A DNA stretch of 64,000 nucleotides from Escherichia coli (GTDB lineage: Bacteria; Pseudomonadota; Gammaproteobacteria; Enterobacterales; Enterobacteriaceae), in NCBI RefSeq assembly GCF_003019035.1, contig NZ_CP027447.1. The stretch is one strand, 5' to 3'. The translations under genes and the position numbers were made by a program. Shown here one piece after another: positions 9,980-40,539 of the stretch. Position 1 is the stretch's first letter. The number at the start of each line of letters is the position of its first letter. Below the pieces are notes generated by a model. The model ran no database searches, was not told the origin of the DNA, and saw nothing but the letters and a program-made list of their open reading frames with translations.

Positions 9980-11245
9980 TTATAACTCTGTTGTAAAGGA
10001 TTGGCTTAACCAATTATTGGATGTTGGACCAAAACCTAAGGAAGGTTTATCCTCATTATGAATATAATAACAGACGGGTGTGCCCGTTGGGTCCTTTAGC
10101 CCCGAGTGTGAGGGTAGAGAAGAGGAATTTGACTTATAGTCACCAACCCCGTACATGCGACGCATAGGCAGAATAGCTTTTAGTTCTGCGTCAGAAAATA
10201 TTGTTTCTTCTTCTATTAAGGCGTACTCTCTGGAATAATATTTTGATCTATAACGAATAGACATTGAGTCATTTTCTTTTATATGATTTCCTTCGGAATT
10301 CTCGCTTACTTCTACAAGATGTTCATCGCTGGTATCGATATTTGTGATTGCCAGGTTATAAGATAAATCAATGGTCACTTCATTAGTGTCATCAATTATA
10401 TTTCTTACTGCAGTCCAGTACTGCATTTGGGCAAGTGGATCATTGTTGATGCCGTTAACTAATACATGCCAAAGATGTTTTGATGATATTAATTGATCAA
10501 TGTCATCTGTTGGCAATAAATTGTTATTGCTTAAGTTTAAATATTCCAGTTTTGTAGTGGTTTTCGCGTTTAAATGTGCAATATGGTTGTCGTTTAAAGT
10601 GATTTTCTCCACTATGGGGTGATTGTGTAATATAAGGTCATTGATCATGTTGTGATGGGCACTTAACTCAATCAGAGATTCTTGCCGGGAGAGATCCAGC
10701 GATGCTAGTTTGTTATAATCAAGATTAAGAAATTTCAGTTTATAACTATCAGAAATATTAATTTTTGTCAGGTTGTTATTTTGCGCTTCCAGGTTAACCA
10801 ATGAAAGCTGATTTTTTAAATCCAAATTTTCCAGATTATTGTGATCAATATAAATATTTTCCAGTTTTGATTGATTTGGAAAGGTTATCGTTTTAATTTT
10901 ATTAAAGCTGAGGTTGATATTGACGAGGCTGGCATTGTCAGTAAAGTCAAGACAAGTGAGACAATTGTTTTCCAGATTTAACGTGTTAACTGTCGAGGGG
11001 ATAGGGGGTAACTCACTCAAATCAAGATATGACAAATCAAGAGATGCCATGTTCGAATTGTAAGCTTCTTTAATTCGCTCCACGGCAATTGCTCTTTCTT
11101 CACCATTATTAAGCGACTTATTACCCCATTGTGCCAGTCGTTCACAAAAATTGCTGGAGATGGTTTTTTTGTTAGGTAATGCGTTATTTAATTGATAACT
11201 GGCATTATTTTTTACACAAGCTGTATTAATATTGGTCATAATCAC
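9980..11245 (-). CDS. Leucine-rich repeat protein, paralogue of the preceding gene
   Basis: 421-aa ORF with repeated LxxLxLxxNxL units (LVNINLSFNKIKTI, LKFLNLDYNKLASLDLS); AT-rich. Confidence 0.7.
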   Translation of the reverse strand: MIMTNINTACVKNNASYQLNNALPNKKTISSNFCERLAQWGNKSLNNGEERAIAVERIKEAYNSNMASLDLSYLDLSELPPIPSTVNTLNLENNCLTCLDFTDNASLVNINLSFNKIKTITFPNQSKLENIYIDHNNLENLDLKNQLSLVNLEAQNNNLTKINISDSYKLKFLNLDYNKLASLDLSRQESLIELSAHHNMINDLILHNHPIVEKITLNDNHIAHLNAKTTTKLEYLNLSNNNLLPTDDIDQLISSKHLWHVLVNGINNDPLAQMQYWTAVRNIIDDTNEVTIDLSYNLAITNIDTSDEHLVEVSENSEGNHIKENDSMSIRYRSKYYSREYALIEEETIFSDAELKAILPMRRMYGVGDYKSNSSSLPSHSGLKDPTGTPVCYYIHNEDKPSLGFGPTSNNWLSQSFTTEL

Positions 11246-25140: not shown

Positions 25141-26033
25141 GACTGCTTTCCTCCTGCTTTCGGGTCAAGCAGATCGCGAATACCATCGCCAAAGAGATTA
25201 AACCCGACGGCGGTAAGCAAAATCGCTGCCCCCGGAAATGCGCAATACCACCATTGATCGAGCACATAGTTGCGACCATTCGCCACCATCGCCCCCCATT
25301 CAGCACTCGGTTGTTGAGCACCAAGGCCAATAAATCCCAACGTGGCGGCCATTAAAATCGCGCTACCGATATCCAGCGATGCCTGCACAATCAGCGGCGG
25401 CAGGGAGTTACGTAAAATATGCCAGTTGATCAGATGCCAACGCGACGCACCAAAGGTTTTCGCCGCCTGAACGAAAGTGTACTGGCGGACAACTAATGTT
25501 TGCCCCCGCGCCAGGCGCACATAAAACGGGATTCGCACGATAGCAATCGCCAGCATGGCGTTAAACAAACTCGGCCCGAGAGCGGCTGCCAGTGCCATTG
25601 TCAGCACCAGCGAAGGAATCGACAGCATAATGTCCATGATGCGCATGATGATCGCGTCTGCGCGTCCGCCAAGCACACCGGATAGACACCCGAGTAGCGA
25701 CCCCATCATACCTGCAATGGCGACCACCACTAATCCGGCGAGAATTGATTGCTGACTGCCGACCAGTACGCGGCTAAACAGATCGCGTCCCACTTCATCG
25801 GTGCCAAACCAGTGCGCTGCAGAAGGCGGCAAAAGGCGGGCGGTTAAATCAATGGCGTTGGGATCATGCGTCGCCAGCCACGGTGAAAAAATCATCATCA
25901 ATAGCATTAATACAATGATGACTGCGCCGGTCACGGTGAGCGGGCTGCCTTTCAGCATCCATACCAGTTTTGCACCGTTAAATCGCGTTTGTTTTTGTGG
26001 GCGTACGGCGGACGTTTCCTCGCTTAGCATCAT
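25137..26033 (-). CDS. ddpC: D,D-dipeptide ABC transporter permease
   Basis: 298-aa multi-pass membrane ORF, overlaps ddpD start by 4 bp. Confidence 0.9.
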   Translation of the reverse strand: MMLSEETSAVRPQKQTRFNGAKLVWMLKGSPLTVTGAVIIVLMLLMMIFSPWLATHDPNAIDLTARLLPPSAAHWFGTDEVGRDLFSRVLVGSQQSILAGLVVVAIAGMMGSLLGCLSGVLGGRADAIIMRIMDIMLSIPSLVLTMALAAALGPSLFNAMLAIAIVRIPFYVRLARGQTLVVRQYTFVQAAKTFGASRWHLINWHILRNSLPPLIVQASLDIGSAILMAATLGFIGLGAQQPSAEWGAMVANGRNYVLDQWWYCAFPGAAILLTAVGFNLFGDGIRDLLDPKAGGKQS

Positions 26034-27052
26034 TCACCACCTCCACGTCCGATACGCGGATCAATCCACAAATAGAGCAAATCCACCACCAGGTTCACCA
26101 GCACATAAGCAAACGAAACCACGACGGCAAAGCCCATCACTGCCGGGAAGTCGAGCGCCTGTATTGATGTTACTACCCATGCACCCATTCCGGGCCAGGC
26201 AAAAACGGTTTCGGTGAGCACTGCGCCATACAACAAATCGCCCAGCGCCAGTCCCAATACGGTAATCGAGGGGATCAACGCATTGGGTAGCGCATAACAT
26301 AAAACGATATACCAGCCGGGCAAGCCGCTGGCCCGGGCGGTACGAATGTAATCTTCACTCAATTGTTCCAGCATCGCTGAGCGGATCTGGCGAGCGACAA
26401 TTCCCAGGTGAACGAACGCCAGCGTTAATGCCGGTAAGATGAGATGTTGCAGCGCATTGAAGAAGACTTCACCGTTGCCTTCAAGCAGCGCATCGAGCAG
26501 ATAAAAGCCGGTAACGTGCGTTGGTGGATCCAGCCAGTCATCAAGCCTTCCGCCGCCGGGAAGAATTTGCAGATGACCATAAAACAGCACAATGACGCCC
26601 AGCCCAAGCCAGAACGCAGGTGTGGAGATTCCGGTAATGGCCATTATTCGCACCAGATGATCCAGCCAGCGATTTCGCCAGACTGCAGAGAGTATGCCCA
26701 ACGGGATGCCAATCAGGAGTGCCAGCAGCAGCGCGCAAAATGCCAGTTCCAGCGTCGCCGGGAAAAATATACGCAACTCTTCCAGCACCGGACGCCCGGT
26801 ACGAATGGATGTTCCCAGGTCACCCTGAAACAGATCGCTGACGTAGCGGTAAAACTGTACGTACAGTGGCTGGTCCAGCCCCAGTTGCTGGCGAATATTT
26901 TCCACGATAGCATCGCTGGCGCGGTCACCCGCCAGTAACCGCGCCGGATCGCCGGGGATCAGGTGCGAGATAATAAACGTAATCACGCAGACGCCCGCCA
27001 CCACGAGCACCAGCCCCCAGCAGCGTTGGCGTAAAATACTCCAGAAGGTCAC
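26030..27052 (-). CDS. ddpB: D,D-dipeptide ABC transporter permease
   Basis: 340-aa membrane ORF, overlaps ddpC start. Confidence 0.9.
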   Translation of the reverse strand: MTFWSILRQRCWGLVLVVAGVCVITFIISHLIPGDPARLLAGDRASDAIVENIRQQLGLDQPLYVQFYRYVSDLFQGDLGTSIRTGRPVLEELRIFFPATLELAFCALLLALLIGIPLGILSAVWRNRWLDHLVRIMAITGISTPAFWLGLGVIVLFYGHLQILPGGGRLDDWLDPPTHVTGFYLLDALLEGNGEVFFNALQHLILPALTLAFVHLGIVARQIRSAMLEQLSEDYIRTARASGLPGWYIVLCYALPNALIPSITVLGLALGDLLYGAVLTETVFAWPGMGAWVVTSIQALDFPAVMGFAVVVSFAYVLVNLVVDLLYLWIDPRIGRGGGE

Positions 27053-27053
27053 G

Positions 27054-28310
27054 TTATTTACTCATAGTATTGATATTGAAGACCTGTTCCAGCATGGGAT
27101 TGAACACAAAGCCTTTCACCTCTTTGTTCATCGCCAGTTGATAGTTTTTCTGGAACAGGTACACATAAGCAGCGTCATCAATGACGATTTTCTGTGCCTG
27201 CTGGTAGTCCCGGGTACGCTGCGTCTGGTCGGTGGTCGCTAGCGCATTGCGCAGTAACTTATCGACCTCACTGTTTTCATAGAACGAGCGGTTACCCGGC
27301 AGACCTTTTTTGTCGGACTCAAACCAGTAATTCATAAACATATACGGGTCGGCAAAATCCGGACTCCAGTTGCCAATCGCGATGTCGTAATCACCTTTAC
27401 CCACTCTGTCGCGCATGGTGGCGTTCGCCAGCTTTTCCAGCTTCACATTGATGCCCAGCTTGTTGAGACTGGATTGTGTCGCCAGAGCAATAGGCTCCCA
27501 GTTCGGATCATTATCAGAATAGAGAAACGTCAGGCTGGTGGGTTTGCTCGTCACTTTATCCCATTCGGCTTTGGCTTTCGTTTCGTCATGGTTGTATTGC
27601 ATTGCCGTCGCATCGTATCCCCACATGCCTTCCGGAATCGGGCCGCGCATCTGTTTTCCGTTACCACTCAGAATGCCGTTAACCATTCCCTGATAATCGG
27701 TAGACCAGGAAATGGCCCGACGCAGATCCGCCTGATTAAGTGGCGCTTTGCTGTTATTCAGATACAGATAGGTGACGCGCAGTGACGGATACTCTGCCAC
27801 ATTGACTTTGTTTTCCTGCTTCAGTGCGTTGAGTTGATCCACCGGCAGCGCATCGGCAATGTCAATGTCGCCACGGGAGAGCTGCAGGCGACGGGAAGCA
27901 CTTTCACCGATAATTTTTACCGATACCCGTTTGAAATTCGGTTTATTGCCGGGGTAATGCGGATTTGGCACCAGAACTAATTGCTGACCTTTTTGCCAGC
28001 TTTTCAGCATAAACGGTCCGGAGCCAGCGGTATTTTGCGCGAGGAAACCACGGGCATCATCCGCCGCATGCTCCTTTAAGACCGCCGGATTGATAATGGA
28101 TGCACCGTCATTCGCCAGCGTGTAGAGGAACGGTGCGAATGGCTGGCTAAGGGTAAACCTCACTATATGTTCGTCGGGAGCATCAATCTTTAAATCTTTG
28201 GGAAATGCTTCTGCTGGCCCCTGGCCGATTTTTAGTAACCGCTCAAAAGAGAGTTTTACTGCTTCGGCAGTGACAGGTGTGCCATCGGCAAATTTAGCAT
28301 TGTCCTTCAG
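27054..28310 (-). pseudogene. ddpA: ddpA periplasmic dipeptide-binding protein, 5'-truncated by prophage insertion
   Basis: Reading frame runs without stop from 27054 up to the prophage junction at 28310 (ORF track shows only 27054..28163 from an internal GTG); about 418 C-terminal residues remain, signal peptide and first ~98 codons absent. Confidence 0.85.
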
Positions 28311-28490
28311 TGTATTGATTCACTTGAAGTACGAAAAAAAACCGGGAGGACATTGGATTATTCGGGATCTGATGGGATTAGATTTGGTGGGGCTTGCAAG
28401 CCTGTAGCGCAAATTTTAGTCGTTAATCAATGAAACGCGAAAGATAGTAAAAAATTGCTTTTGTTTCATTGAAAATACGAAAAACAAAAA
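28311..28490 (+). repeat. Prophage left end (attL) with transposase-binding sites L1-L3
   Basis: Terminal TG; end-binding repeats TGATTCACTTGAAGTACGAAAA (28317-28338), TGAAACGCGAAAGATAG (28431-28447), TTGTTTCATTGAAAATACGAAAAAC (28461-28485). Confidence 0.75.
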
Positions 28491-37855: not shown

Positions 37856-38086
37856 ATGGGTAAAGGCTGGAATGCATCCTTTCATCTTGGCAGACGTGAG
37901 CGGCTGCGTCAGGAGGTTTTGCACCGTGTCGCCGGTGGGCCTCGGCCTTCGCCCCGCGACTATACCGGTCATGATGGCACCCACGGCAGTTATTACATGA
38001 AAGGCTGGCAGTCAGTTGATATGCCGGAAATTCTTCACCACTGTCAACGTTATAAGGAAAAATATTGTGTACAGAAAATTCAGTGA
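37856..38086 (+). CDS. Hypothetical small protein between mor and C
   Basis: 76-aa ORF; weak support. Confidence 0.3.
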   Translation: MGKGWNASFHLGRRERLRQEVLHRVAGGPRPSPRDYTGHDGTHGSYYMKGWQSVDMPEILHHCQRYKEKYCVQKIQ

Positions 38087-38119
38087 TGAATGTTTCGGGC
38101 CGTCCACGCTGATTAGTGC

Positions 38120-38197
38120 GATAAAAGTGATTGCCCTTGTGGTTCTGATAACCATCAGTGCCGTGGTGTATCTTTCTGTCTGTTAACCGGGGGAAAT
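38120..38197 (+). promoter_or_regulatory. Probable Mor-dependent middle promoter region (Pm) upstream of C
   Basis: Position only: in Mu, Pm lies directly upstream of C. Confidence 0.3.
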
Positions 38198-38620
38198 ATG
38201 CAGCATGATTTATTTGAACACGATCCGGCAATTCGCCAGTTAATCGGACATATTGATAACATCCCGGCCCCGGAACTGGAATCACGCTGGCCCCGTTCGG
38301 TGGTTGATCTGATTGATGTTCTGGAAAACGAACTGAAACGCCAGAACGTCAGCAATCCCCGTGAACTTGCCCGTAAACAGGCCGTTGCCCTGTCCTGTTT
38401 TCTGGGGGGGCGGCAGTTTTACATCCCCTGCGGCGATACTATCCTGACCGCGTTACGCGACGATTTGCTTTACTGCCAGTTCAATGGTCGTAACATGGAA
38501 GAACTGCGTCGCCAGTACCGCCTGTCCCAGCCGCAGATCTACCAGATTATTGCCCGCCAGAGAAAGCTGCATACACGACGTCATCAGCCTGATCTGTTCT
38601 CACCTGAAAGCCAGAAATAA
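38198..38620 (+). CDS. C: Late transcription activator C
   Basis: 140-aa ORF; C-terminal region (NGRNMEELRRQYRLSQPQIYQIIARQRK) paralogous to Mor. Confidence 0.85.
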   Translation: MQHDLFEHDPAIRQLIGHIDNIPAPELESRWPRSVVDLIDVLENELKRQNVSNPRELARKQAVALSCFLGGRQFYIPCGDTILTALRDDLLYCQFNGRNMEELRRQYRLSQPQIYQIIARQRKLHTRRHQPDLFSPESQK

Positions 38621-38646
38621 CCGGCATCCTGCCGGTTATTTCCTGT
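38620..38646 (+). terminator. Hairpin after C
   Basis: CCGGCA-TCC-TGCCGG followed by TTATTT. Confidence 0.4.
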
Positions 38647-38649
38647 CAC

Positions 38650-38711
38650 CATAATCCCGCACCTGCCATCTGATTTTTTAGACTGCCATCAGAGCATTTT
38701 TTCAGGGAAGC
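38650..38711 (+). promoter_or_regulatory. Probable C-dependent late promoter (Plys) region
   Basis: Position only, between C and lys. Confidence 0.3.
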
Positions 38712-39230
38712 ATGATGGCGGGGATACCAAAAAAACTGAAAGCCGCACTGCTGGCGGTAACGATTGCCGGTGGCGGTGTGGGTGGTTATCAGGAAATGAC
38801 CCGTCAGTCTCTGATCCACCTGGAAAATATCGCTTATCTGCCTTACCGCGATATTGCCGGTGTGCTTACGGTCTGTGTGGGACATACCGGGCCGGATATC
38901 GAAATGCGCCGTTACAGCCATGCGGAGTGTATGGCTCTCCTCGACAGTGATTTAAAACCGGTTTATGCGGCAATCGATCGTCTTGTCAGGGTGCCGCTGA
39001 CGCCATATCAGAAAACGGCGCTGGCAACGTTTATTTTCAACACCGGTGTTACCGCATTCAGTAAAACAACGTTGCTGAAAAAACTCAATGCCGGTGATTA
39101 CGCCGGAGCGCGTGACCAGATGGCCCGCTGGGTGTTTGCCGCAGGCCATAAATGGAAAGGACTGATGAACCGTCGCGAAGTGGAAATGGCAATCTGGAAT
39201 ATCAGGGGGGCGGATGACCTTCGCCAGTAA
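38712..39230 (+). CDS. lys: Endolysin (lysozyme-like) with N-terminal signal-anchor
   Basis: 172-aa ORF; N-terminal hydrophobic Gly-rich segment LKAALLAVTIAGGGVGG. Confidence 0.8.
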   Translation: MMAGIPKKLKAALLAVTIAGGGVGGYQEMTRQSLIHLENIAYLPYRDIAGVLTVCVGHTGPDIEMRRYSHAECMALLDSDLKPVYAAIDRLVRVPLTPYQKTALATFIFNTGVTAFSKTTLLKKLNAGDYAGARDQMARWVFAAGHKWKGLMNRREVEMAIWNIRGADDLRQ

Positions 39231-39600
39231 AAGTTTACTGCTGGCAGCCGTGTTTGCCGCCGTTCTGTCTGGGGTGTTGTGGCACAGGCTGGACAGCACC
39301 CGCCACGATAACCAGACGCTGCGCCGTGAATTACAGACGGAGCAACAGGCCCGCAACACGGCTGAATGGTTGTTACACAGTCAGGAACAGACGATGCAGG
39401 TATTTTCCGCTATCCGTGCCGCAAATCGTGCCGCGCGGCTGGCAGATGAGACAGAACATCATGATGCAAAACAAAAAATTACAACCGCCATTACCGGTGA
39501 CAATTGCAGCACTCGTCCTGTGCCTGCCGTTGCTGCTGACAGGTTGCGGGAACTCGAAAAACGCACCCGTGCCATCGGTGGTGATCCTGCCCGAAACTGA
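39214..39600 (+). CDS. Inner-membrane spanin-like protein
   Basis: 128-aa ORF with N-terminal TM helix (LLLAAVFAAVLSGVLW) then charged coiled-coil-like region. Confidence 0.55.
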   Translation: MTFASKSLLLAAVFAAVLSGVLWHRLDSTRHDNQTLRRELQTEQQARNTAEWLLHSQEQTMQVFSAIRAANRAARLADETEHHDAKQKITTAITGDNCSTRPVPAVAADRLRELEKRTRAIGGDPARN

Positions 39601-39802
39601 TGCAGAACTGACGGAAGCAACGCCCGTTCCGCCCATGCCACAGCCCCTGACGTGGGGAGCATCCCTTCTCTGGAATGCTGACCTGCTGATGGCGCTCGGG
39701 CAGTGCAACCGCGACAAGGCATCAGTCCGGGAACAGGAGACCCGGAGGAAAGAAATTTATGAACGAAGACCAGAACCGGGCGGTGGCGCTGCTGCTCGCT
39801 GA
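39461..39802 (+). CDS. Outer-membrane lipoprotein spanin-like protein, overlapping the preceding gene out of frame
   Basis: Within ORF 39254..39802: MMQNKKLQPPLPVTIAALVLCLPLLLTGC... with lipobox LTGC; Pro-rich. Confidence 0.45.
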   Translation: MMQNKKLQPPLPVTIAALVLCLPLLLTGCGNSKNAPVPSVVILPETDAELTEATPVPPMPQPLTWGASLLWNADLLMALGQCNRDKASVREQETRRKEIYERRPEPGGGAAAR

Positions 39803-39953
39803 ACTCTGGCAGGGGAATACCCGTGATATTCCCCGTCCGGCGGCGTATGACCCGCCTGTATTGTGTGCCGGTTGCGGTCGTGAGCTGCGGCCTGATGTGC
39901 TGAGACAGCAGCCAATGGCGAACTACTGCCACTGGTGCCGTGGAGCAGAATAA
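39759..39953 (+). CDS. Small Cys4 protein
   Basis: 64-aa ORF with CAGCG...CHWC. Confidence 0.35.
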   Translation: MNEDQNRAVALLLAELWQGNTRDIPRPAAYDPPVLCAGCGRELRPDVLRQQPMANYCHWCRGAE

Positions 39954-40252
39954 TGGATTTGATTTCAGTTTTAGCGTTATGGCCTTACCTGTTGCCTGTT
40001 GTGGCCGGTGGGGCCGTCTGGGCGATGCGTCGTAGTTTTGCCAGCACCGAGCGTGTGGAGCGTCTTGAAAACCGGATGACCGAAATGGAAACCCGCTACG
40101 CCAGCATCCCTGGCACAGAAGATGTACACGAAATGCGCCTGCGTATTGCAGAGCTGTCCGGCGATATCCGGGTGCTGTCCCAGCGGGTGCAGTCATTTTC
40201 CCATCAACTGGAGCTGCTGCTTGAAAACGCAGTAAACCGGAGTAATTCATGA
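39953..40252 (+). CDS. Hypothetical small membrane/coiled-coil protein
   Basis: ORF 39935..40252; likely ATG 39953 overlapping upstream stop; MDLISVLALWPYLLPVVAGGAVWA TM segment. Confidence 0.45.
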   Translation: MDLISVLALWPYLLPVVAGGAVWAMRRSFASTERVERLENRMTEMETRYASIPGTEDVHEMRLRIAELSGDIRVLSQRVQSFSHQLELLLENAVNRSNS

Positions 40253-40539
40253 TTAACGATATTCTGACCGAAGACCGTCGTCTGGTCATCCTGCGTTCCC
40301 TGATGGACTGCAATAACGAAGCCAACGAATCCATCCTTCAGGACTGTCTGGATGCATACGGACACAACGTTTCCCGCGATGTGGTTCGCGGCCAGATTGA
40401 CTGGCTGGCAGAGCAGCAACTGGTCACCGTGGAAAACCTGCGCGGCTTTTATGTCGTAACGCTGACCTCCCGAGGTCAGGATGTGGCGGAAGGCCGCGCC
40501 CGCGTTGCCGGTGTCAAGCGTCCGCGTCCCCGTGCATGA
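40249..40539 (+). CDS. Hypothetical protein upstream of terminase genes
   Basis: 96-aa ORF, 4-bp overlap with neighbours. Confidence 0.45.
   Translation: MINDILTEDRRLVILRSLMDCNNEANESILQDCLDAYGHNVSRDVVRGQIDWLAEQQLVTVENLRGFYVVTLTSRGQDVAEGRARVAGVKRPRPRA

Follow-up and report, generated by a model that had tools for sequence, protein, structure and literature searches.

Spanins bring about the last step of lysis in Gram-negative hosts. In phage Mu, gp23 and gp23.1 have been identified as the two spanin subunits (Chamblee et al. 2022, PMC9239132). A spanin-null mutant is recognised by cells that become spherical when Mg2+ stabilises the outer membrane, and an amber mutation at W65 of Mu 23.1 has this phenotype and can be complemented with lambda RzRz1 (PMC9239132). 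Lambda Rz/Rz1 belong to the same functional class, with an inner-membrane TM protein that has a helical periplasmic domain and a Pro-rich outer-membrane lipoprotein that is encoded in the +1 frame. In lambda, the Rz1 gene is fully embedded in the Rz gene, whereas in the 'overlapped' class the o-spanin gene begins within the i-spanin gene in another frame and extends past its stop (PMC6139136). LysB/LysC of phage P2, an experimentally tested 'overlapped' spanin, show this +1 architecture directly after the endolysin (PMC6139136). Unimolecular spanins of the T1 gp11 type carry out the same final lysis step and also make use of a lipoprotein signal, but they are a single polypeptide with an N-terminal lipobox and a C-terminal TMD (PMC6139136), in contrast to the two separate subunits of the locus described here.

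It is as good as certain that the genes at 39214-39600 and 39461-39802 of the window, which is the whole stretch of 64,000 nucleotides of E. coli DNA that was analysed, encode the two subunits of the phage Mu spanin, located in an E. coli Mu-like prophage. This identification is based on the identity with Mu, the family membership, the signal features, and the conservation of both frames and of the architecture, and spanin function of this prophage copy can be expected by analogy, carried over from the Mu study. The pair as such is already known, as it corresponds to the characterised Mu gp23/gp23.1, and it adds little new biology. The practical value of the locus lies in annotation, as the o-spanin is missing from most deposited Mu-like genomes, and it is a clean example of dual coding, in which the C-terminal motif of the i-spanin and the signal peptide of the o-spanin are encoded by the same nucleotides.

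The lysis cassette and its prophage

Position 28311 of the window is the canonical Mu left end (TGTATTGATTCACTTGAAGTACG), and to the left of it there is E. coli ddpA-ddpC DNA, with up to 100% identity to sequenced strains that have an uninterrupted operon. The window therefore consists of E. coli chromosome and a Mu-like prophage that is inserted in the ddp operon and runs off the right end of the window. The nucleotide identity of its lysis region to Mu is 98.3%, and the 1.7 kb around the spanin pair, likewise 98.3% identical to Mu, are 98-99% identical to the other Muviruses D108, SfMu, PhiR68_1 and the Yersinia vB_YpM phages; the DNA of the spanin region is 99.1% identical to the Yersinia Muvirus vB_YpM_3. 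The features of the cassette are the following:

38715..39230, plus strand: SAR endolysin gene, Mu gp22 homologue (ORF 38712/38715; Pfam Phage_lysozyme 1.3e-36, PHROG 7 endolysin 3.3e-51, Mu_22 'SAR endolysin')
39214..39600, plus strand: i-spanin gene, Mu gp23 homologue, 128 aa (ATG ORF; Mu_23 'i-spanin'; PHROG 214)
39232..39282, plus strand: N-terminal TM helix of the i-spanin, about residues 7-23 (SLLLAAVFAAVLSGVLW; Kyte-Doolittle, Mu record, AlphaFold)
39461..39802, plus strand: o-spanin gene, Mu gp23.1 / Mu_55 homologue, 113-aa precursor, +1 frame relative to the i-spanin (Mu_55 'o-spanin'; Pfam LysC; PHROG 3001 and 456)
39461..39547, plus strand: lipoprotein signal peptide of the o-spanin with the lipobox L-L-T-G-C, the Cys29 codon at 39545-39547, and Gly at +2 (PS51257-like pattern, Mu annotation)
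39461..39600, plus strand: dual-coding overlap of 140 nt, encoding i-spanin residues 83-128 (C98, RPVPAVAADRL) as well as the signal peptide and first mature residues of the o-spanin (ORF coordinates)
39468..39478, plus strand: A4-C-A6 tract with which the overlap begins, intact in the window; in other assemblies, both frames are fused by 1-nt deletions at this place
39601..39758, plus strand: o-spanin-only segment with the conserved periplasmic domain (..LTWGASLLWNADLLMALGQCNRDKASVRE..), including W65 (39653-39655) and C82 (pN/pS, invariant residues)
39759..39953, plus strand: gene 24 homologue, 64 aa, with two CxxC pairs (PHROG 3260, unknown function; 1 aa difference from Mu)
39953..40252, plus strand: gp25 'releasin' homologue, 99 aa, DUF2730 (Pfam DUF2730 2.7e-13; annotated as 'releasin' in Mu; 100% identity with Mu gp25)

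The curated Mu record AF083977 lists in the same order the SAR endolysin Mu_22, the i-spanin Mu_23 (10979..11365), the o-spanin Mu_55 (11226..11567), gene 24, and the releasin Mu_25, and with an offset of 28235 these features map exactly onto 38715..39230, 39214..39600, 39461..39802, 39759..39953 and 39953..40252. An earlier sequence-only reading had suspected a spanin pair downstream of an endolysin and had proposed a comparison with the annotated Mu lysis genes; this comparison gives a one-to-one correspondence of the pair with Mu_23 and Mu_55, and the lysozyme-family gene indeed directly precedes the pair, with its 3' end overlapping the i-spanin start by 17 nt. Mu gp23/gp23.1 agree with the prophage pair in relative coordinates, lengths (128 and 113 aa), the lipobox LTGC with C29, the overlap geometry, and the neighbours gp22, gp24 and gp25, and each of the two is 96% identical to the respective prophage protein. 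The i-spanin differs from Mu gp23 by the five substitutions T15A, G21V, H48N, G56S and E87Q, the o-spanin from Mu gp23.1 by K4N, L12P, I46T, T48A and I94T, and none of these ten affects an invariant column. The endolysin has two differences (M42L, S118T), and E37, D46, T52, K6 and K7 are present as counted on the translation. Gene 24 overlaps the o-spanin 3' end by 44 nt, and the releasin, the function of which has been described for Mu (PMC9239132), completes the Mu lysis cassette. Upstream of gene 22, the Mu late promoter Plys region is conserved, and a scan of 38550-40350 gave only uninformative background-level signals, with no strong internal promoter or terminator; the pair is predicted to lie on the late transcript.

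It could be argued that the genes are spanins by descent but have become inert, as part of a defective prophage that never undergoes induction. The chromosomal insertion disrupts the ddp operon, the right end of the element lies beyond the window, and other E. coli Mu-like prophages do contain spanin or lysozyme alleles with frameshifts. This reading is unlikely, however: every frame of this lysis cassette is intact, with 2, 5, 5, 1 and 0 residues differing from Mu in gp22, gp23, gp23.1, gp24 and gp25, the A-tract that is mutated elsewhere is intact here, and C and Mor, like the late promoter region, can be aligned with Mu.

Mu differs from this prophage in that it carries gene 19, which encodes a 4-TMD protein that was formerly proposed as holin. 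In the prophage, 372 nt are cleanly missing between genes 18 and 20, and the start codon of gene 20 is GTG. Gene 19 is present in Mu, D108 and Mu_3F6, and the short form that lacks it is common to SfMu, PhiR68_1, Tongde and vB_YpM_3/23, where it is found as one contiguous match.

The two spanin subunits

The 128-aa product of 39214..39600, for which an N-terminal TM helix had been noted from sequence, begins with MTFASKSLLLAAVFAAVLSGVLWHR, and its best 19-residue Kyte-Doolittle window reaches 1.93 at residues 4-22 (ASKSLLLAAVFAAVLSGVL). The Mu record gives the topology as '1 transmembrane domain N-in C-out', which is adopted here. In an AlphaFold model, calculated with a 24-sequence alignment (mean pLDDT 77.5), residues 4-93 and 105-120 form two helices, which are separated by a break at 94-104. 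The first modelled helix runs on from the TM segment into the periplasmic domain, and the break surrounds the invariant C98 and the RPVPA motif. The model thus predicts a TM anchor and two helical segments, as is expected for an i-spanin, and together with the hydropathy and the Mu topology the protein appears as a largely alpha-helical protein with a single N-terminal TMD. In the family alignment, I89, C98 and L111 are invariant, and A92, V103 and P104 nearly so. The protein matches PHROG 214 'Rz-like spanin' (1.5e-34), and it has been filed there and not under DUF2570 (PF10828), the PGAP family name of the CP052639 i-spanin, because the score of 18 bits (E 0.003) is below the Pfam gathering threshold of 26.6. 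No NCBIfam model matches the i-spanin, and PDB sequence searches with the family profiles gave no solved structure of any relative, nothing for the o-spanin, and for the i-spanin only insignificant matches to ATP synthase b subunits, which also consist of a TM segment plus a long helix.

The second product is a predicted small lipoprotein. The o-frame contains MMQNKKLQPPLPVTIAALVLCLPLLLTGC, which fits the PROSITE PS51257-type lipoprotein rule, and the o-spanin sequence MMQNKKLQPPLPVTIAALVLCLPLLLTG, directly followed by the Cys, matches this pattern (VLCLPLLLTGC) with Cys29 as counted from ATG 39461; the Mu record AF083977 states accordingly 'lipoylation site predicted at C29 with lipobox LTGC' for Mu_55. 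There are two Lys in the n-region, the h-region has a KD of 2.27, and there is no Asp at +2, so that the sequence has the features of a small lipoprotein with an SPII signal. The LLTGC lipobox and the Pro-rich character that had been read from the raw sequence have thus both been recovered, the first by the PROSITE-type rule, in answer to the suggested signal-peptidase II site prediction, and the second by 10 Pro in the mature part of 85 residues, 9 of which are within the first 33. On the family level, the o-spanin scores 54.9 bits (E 8.6e-15, gathering threshold 27) with Pfam PF23793 LysC (Rz1-like lysis system protein), with residues 29-98 aligned to positions 1-66 of the 69 profile positions, and it matches PHROG 3001 and 456, which are both termed 'Rz-like spanin'. 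In NCBIfam there is only a sub-threshold, signal-peptide-like match (LptM). Invariant in the alignment are L26, C29, P44, L50, P57, T64, G66, L75, L76, C82, N83, D85, K86, A87, R90 and E93.

The lipobox pattern as such has been rejected as stand-alone evidence, as the six frames of the window contain 7 matches versus 3.5 +/- 1.8 in shuffled sequences, which is not beyond chance; among the 7, only the spanin has a long hydrophobic h-region, as read by eye, and an 85-aa mature part. The o-spanin goes beyond chance because of homology, frame-specific purifying selection, and conserved architecture, not because of this pattern.

Both subunits have an invariant periplasmic cysteine, C98 in the i-spanin and C82 in the o-spanin. 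Periplasmic cysteines for intermolecular disulfides have been found in 507 of 528 two-component spanins (PMC6139136). Also lambda Rz/Rz1 have periplasmic Cys available for homotypic disulfides, but lambda Rz has two of them, C99 and C152 (PMC6139136), whereas the shorter Mu i-spanin of 128 aa has one.

Selection and conservation in the overlapping frames

The o-spanin gene shares only 140 nt with the i-spanin gene and continues for 202 nt beyond its stop, unlike the embedded lambda Rz1 gene, and the architecture is therefore 'overlapped', not embedded. The sequence-only reading had been right in describing the second ORF as out-of-frame, and the term 'partly embedded' has to be replaced by this class. 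Selection was assessed by Nei-Gojobori pN/pS values between the window and the Mu-like relatives L010, L012 and L014, which have 55-66% o-spanin identity; pS between these relatives is near saturation (0.5-0.7), and the ratios are rough and qualitative:

39214-39459, plus strand, i-spanin only: i-frame 0.24-0.63, o-frame 0.9-1.4, third frame about 1.0-2.0 (other two frames together about 0.9-2)
39461..39600, plus strand, 140-nt overlap: i-frame and o-frame each about 0.5-1.0, third frame about 0.9-1.15
39602-39757, plus strand, o-spanin only: i-frame 1.7-4.0, o-frame 0.21-0.40, third frame about 0.7-1.6

Although the ratios are only qualitative, the pattern is unambiguous: purifying selection is frame-specific, and in the overlap both coding frames have intermediate values, as dual coding predicts.

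The same values bear on where the second gene starts. A mechanical ORF of 182 codons extends in the +1 frame from a TTG at 39254 to 39802, but the gene starts at ATG 39461 and encodes 113 instead of 182 aa. ATG 39461 is the start annotated in Mu, and besides Mu and the window it is kept in every Mu-like relative that was examined. A long form of the product, either with 182 aa from TTG 39254 or with 118 aa from an ATG at 39446, is unlikely. The 182-aa ORF has been rejected as gene, as the o-frame 5' of 39461 evolves like non-coding sequence, with a pN/pS of 0.9-1.4 between Mu-like relatives, and as the Cys would be 98 residues away from the N-terminus, which is incompatible with a signal peptide. 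ATG 39446 occurs in the window and is shared by Mu and four Mu-like relatives, and with this start the Cys would be at position 34 and still satisfy the lipobox rule, but L009, a locus with 99% identity, and L089 have ACG instead, whereas ATG 39461 is conserved throughout. The choice between 118 and 113 aa is in any case without functional consequence, because both forms result in the same mature lipoprotein.

Near this start lies the A4-C-A6 tract. A one-base loss at the tract results in a 195-aa fusion of the TMD with the lipoprotein domain and destroys the separate o-spanin. A protein cluster contains such 195-aa products, in which gp23 residues 1-88 are joined to gp23.1 from residue 7, and on the DNA level they arise from the loss of one base in an A4-N-A6 tract: E. 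coli DEC13C and an independent SRA run have A4-G-A5 in place of A4-G-A6, and one metagenome contig has A10 in place of A4-C-A6. The fused alleles thus occur on at least two different haplotypes, in E. coli assemblies that are independent of each other as well as in a metagenome, and other members of the fusion cluster have several frameshifts, as is typical of error-prone assemblies. They may be real null alleles or homopolymer sequencing errors. It is very doubtful that the tract is a recurrent slippage site at which the fusions, if real, serve as a spanin on/off switch or as a working single-chain spanin. Also a programmed frameshift was considered and judged unlikely, as there is no canonical X XXY YYZ heptamer in the i-frame and a +1 shift would be needed. 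The profile of PHROG 214 is chimeric, with i-spanin in columns 10-127 and o-spanin C-terminal sequence in columns 126-175, which is likely caused by fused calls that have been clustered into the family.

The second frame is conserved in close as well as in distant phages, which answers the question of conservation on which the sequence-only reading had made its second frame depend. In SfMu, PhiR68_1 and the vB_YpM phages the translated frame is the same as the o-spanin (100% identity), in Mu the identity is 95.6%, and a tblastn search found the frame in 110 phage records, 96 of them below 60% identity, including annotated Rz1/o-spanin genes in SfV, SfII, SfIV and Klebsiella phage Mulock. Distant phages keep the frame at 37-56% protein identity, and the lipobox is always present. 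Six loci from unrelated backbones were fetched (Mulock, lambdoid SfV, APSE-1, P2-like 3LV2017, Yersinia vB_YenM_29.18, and a Klebsiella prophage-plasmid), and in 6/6 the endolysin is followed by a TM protein of 129-131 aa and then by a +1-frame lipoprotein gene. For five of these loci a start codon could be assigned, and there the lipoprotein gene shares 116-155 nt with the gene of the TM protein and continues for another 136-157 nt past its end. Viral contigs were also scanned, with more than 565 relatives as the result, of which 80 were kept. The +1 overlapped arrangement is present in 79 of these 80, and in the two exceptions or near-exceptions the i-spanin frame is truncated or disrupted. 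All 80 have a lipobox (LSGC, LTGC, LTAC, LTSC, LASC or ISGC), and none has Asp at +2.

P2 itself, the LysC of which gives its name to the o-spanin's Pfam family PF23793, is compared here via its relatives. The o-spanin homologue of the P2-like Klebsiella phage 3LV2017 has 46% identity and the same geometry, whereas the i-spanins of 3LV2017 and of the also P2-like CP052639 are very divergent from the i-spanin described here (15-19% identity). The lysis cassettes of both P2-like elements contain an annotated holin, in contrast to Mu, which has a releasin and no holin (PMC9239132).

The codon of W65 (39653-39655), which with its surroundings is identical between Mu and the window, lies past the i-spanin stop, and the published phenotype of the Mu 23.1 amber mutation is therefore specific for the second frame. 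For Mu, the literature thus already contains the nonsense-mutant lysis phenotype that the sequence-only reading had proposed as a check. That the second frame is open by chance and only the 128-aa ORF encodes a protein can be dismissed as next to impossible, even though random frames not infrequently contain a PS51257-like pattern together with a start codon (7 versus 3.5 expected) and the gene is omitted from most deposited annotations, because the conservation is frame-specific, with an o-frame pN/pS of 0.21-0.40 versus 1 or more in other frames and a lipobox that is kept in distant phages, and also the Pfam LysC score is above cut-off and an amber mutation that touches this frame alone causes a lysis defect in Mu (PMC9239132).

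Working model and annotation of the o-spanin

For the pair, a working model can be derived from the lambda Rz/Rz1 paradigm (PMC6139136) and the Mu study (PMC9239132). In this model, gp23 is a type II inner-membrane protein that is anchored by its N-terminal TM helix and has a periplasmic domain of mostly alpha-helical structure. The small Pro-rich lipoprotein gp23.1 is read in the +1 frame from the internal ATG, its signal peptide is predicted to be cut by signal peptidase II between LLTG and C, and because there is Gly and not Asp at +2, its predicted destination is the inner leaflet of the outer membrane. Both subunits are probably disulfide-linked homodimers via their single conserved periplasmic Cys, and they would bind each other across the periplasm, with a C-terminal contact as suggested by lambda Rz/Rz1. 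The peptidoglycan mesh would restrain this spanin complex until the wall is degraded by the SAR endolysin gp22, which the gp25 releasin helps to set free, and the complexes are thereby released. In analogy to the described systems, the freed complexes would then collapse and fuse the inner and outer membranes, and the last barrier to virion release would be gone.

Overlapped o-spanin genes are rarely called by gene callers (PMC6139136), and in agreement with this a search of a database of 5.8 billion proteins with the o-spanin gave only 9 matches; the informative searches were those at the DNA level. The o-spanin is omitted also from most phage records. In the inspected RefSeq records, the o-spanin is either left out by PGAP or annotated as a 73-aa 'LysC' with a GTG start that corresponds to 39581. 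The reading of the raw sequence thus recovered a gene that standard pipelines mis-call. In one inspected E. coli RefSeq record with the 73-aa 'LysC', this product starts 3' of the signal peptide and of the lipidated Cys.

The PHROG 214 profile and possible fusion of the spanin frames

The reading frames of the inner-membrane spanin (the Mu gp23 homologue) and the outer-membrane spanin (the Mu gp23.1 homologue) are joined into a single 195-aa protein when one base is lost from the A4-N-A6 tract where the overlap of the two genes begins; in the window this tract (39468-39478) is intact. Among the related spanin loci fetched for comparison (L089-L092), fused alleles come from E. coli DEC13C, from an SRA run independent of it and from a metagenome contig, and they represent at least two haplotypes. 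They could be genuine alleles, either null or fused, or they could be homopolymer sequencing errors. Also the 'Rz-like spanin' profile PHROG 214 is chimeric, its columns 10-127 being matched by the i-spanin and its columns 126-175 by residues 45-94 of the o-spanin. A likely cause is that spanin ORFs which were frame-fused or mis-called have been clustered into this family.

RefSeq annotation of the spanin genes

In all three RefSeq E. coli records inspected (L093, L094 and L095), the i-spanin is named 'hypothetical protein'. The o-spanin gene is left out by PGAP in L093 and L094, and in strain WS1933D (L095) an internal GTG is taken as its start, giving a 73-aa LysC (a CDS equivalent to 39581-39802 of the window) that has lost the signal peptide together with the lipid-modified cysteine. 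In E. coli RM8082 (L093, NZ_CP043825.1 929987-930501), which carries a related Mu-like prophage, the lysozyme gene is annotated as frameshifted and is followed downstream by an intact i-spanin gene, and decay of the lysis cassette thus happens in some chromosomal copies.

Genes adjoining the lysis region

The 3' end of the o-spanin gene is overlapped by the following gene:

39759-39953, gene 24 homologue, 64 aa, overlap of 44 nt

Its product contains two CxxC pairs (CAGC...CHWC), which suggest a small zinc-ribbon protein, and it matches PHROG 3260, besides weak NinF- and ECs_2282-like matches.

Mu gene 19, whose product is a protein with four TMDs that was formerly suggested as holin, is absent from the prophage, leaving a clean 372-nt gap relative to Mu:

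37856-38186, stretch without gene 19, flanked by gene C and the Mor-like gene
38067-38186, gene 20, starting with GTG (ATG in Mu)

SfMu, PhiR68_1, vB_YpM_Tongde and vB_YpM_3/23 each match this stretch in a single contiguous piece, so that the short form is common to them, whereas Mu, D108 and Mu_3F6, unlike the window prophage, possess gene 19.

Insertion site and spread of the locus

The spanin locus was found in 40 of the 5426 complete E. coli genomes searched, and none of these carriers matched that of the window at 100%. The left end of the Mu-like prophage (TGTATTGATTCACTTGAAGTACG) lies at 28311, and the insertion site is the ddpA-ddpB-ddpC operon of E. coli, which encodes a D,D-dipeptide transporter. 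Strain SCU-301 is 100% identical to the left host flank (26000-28313), and as its match is confined to this flank (58% of the query) and stops at the prophage junction, SCU-301 lacks an insertion here.
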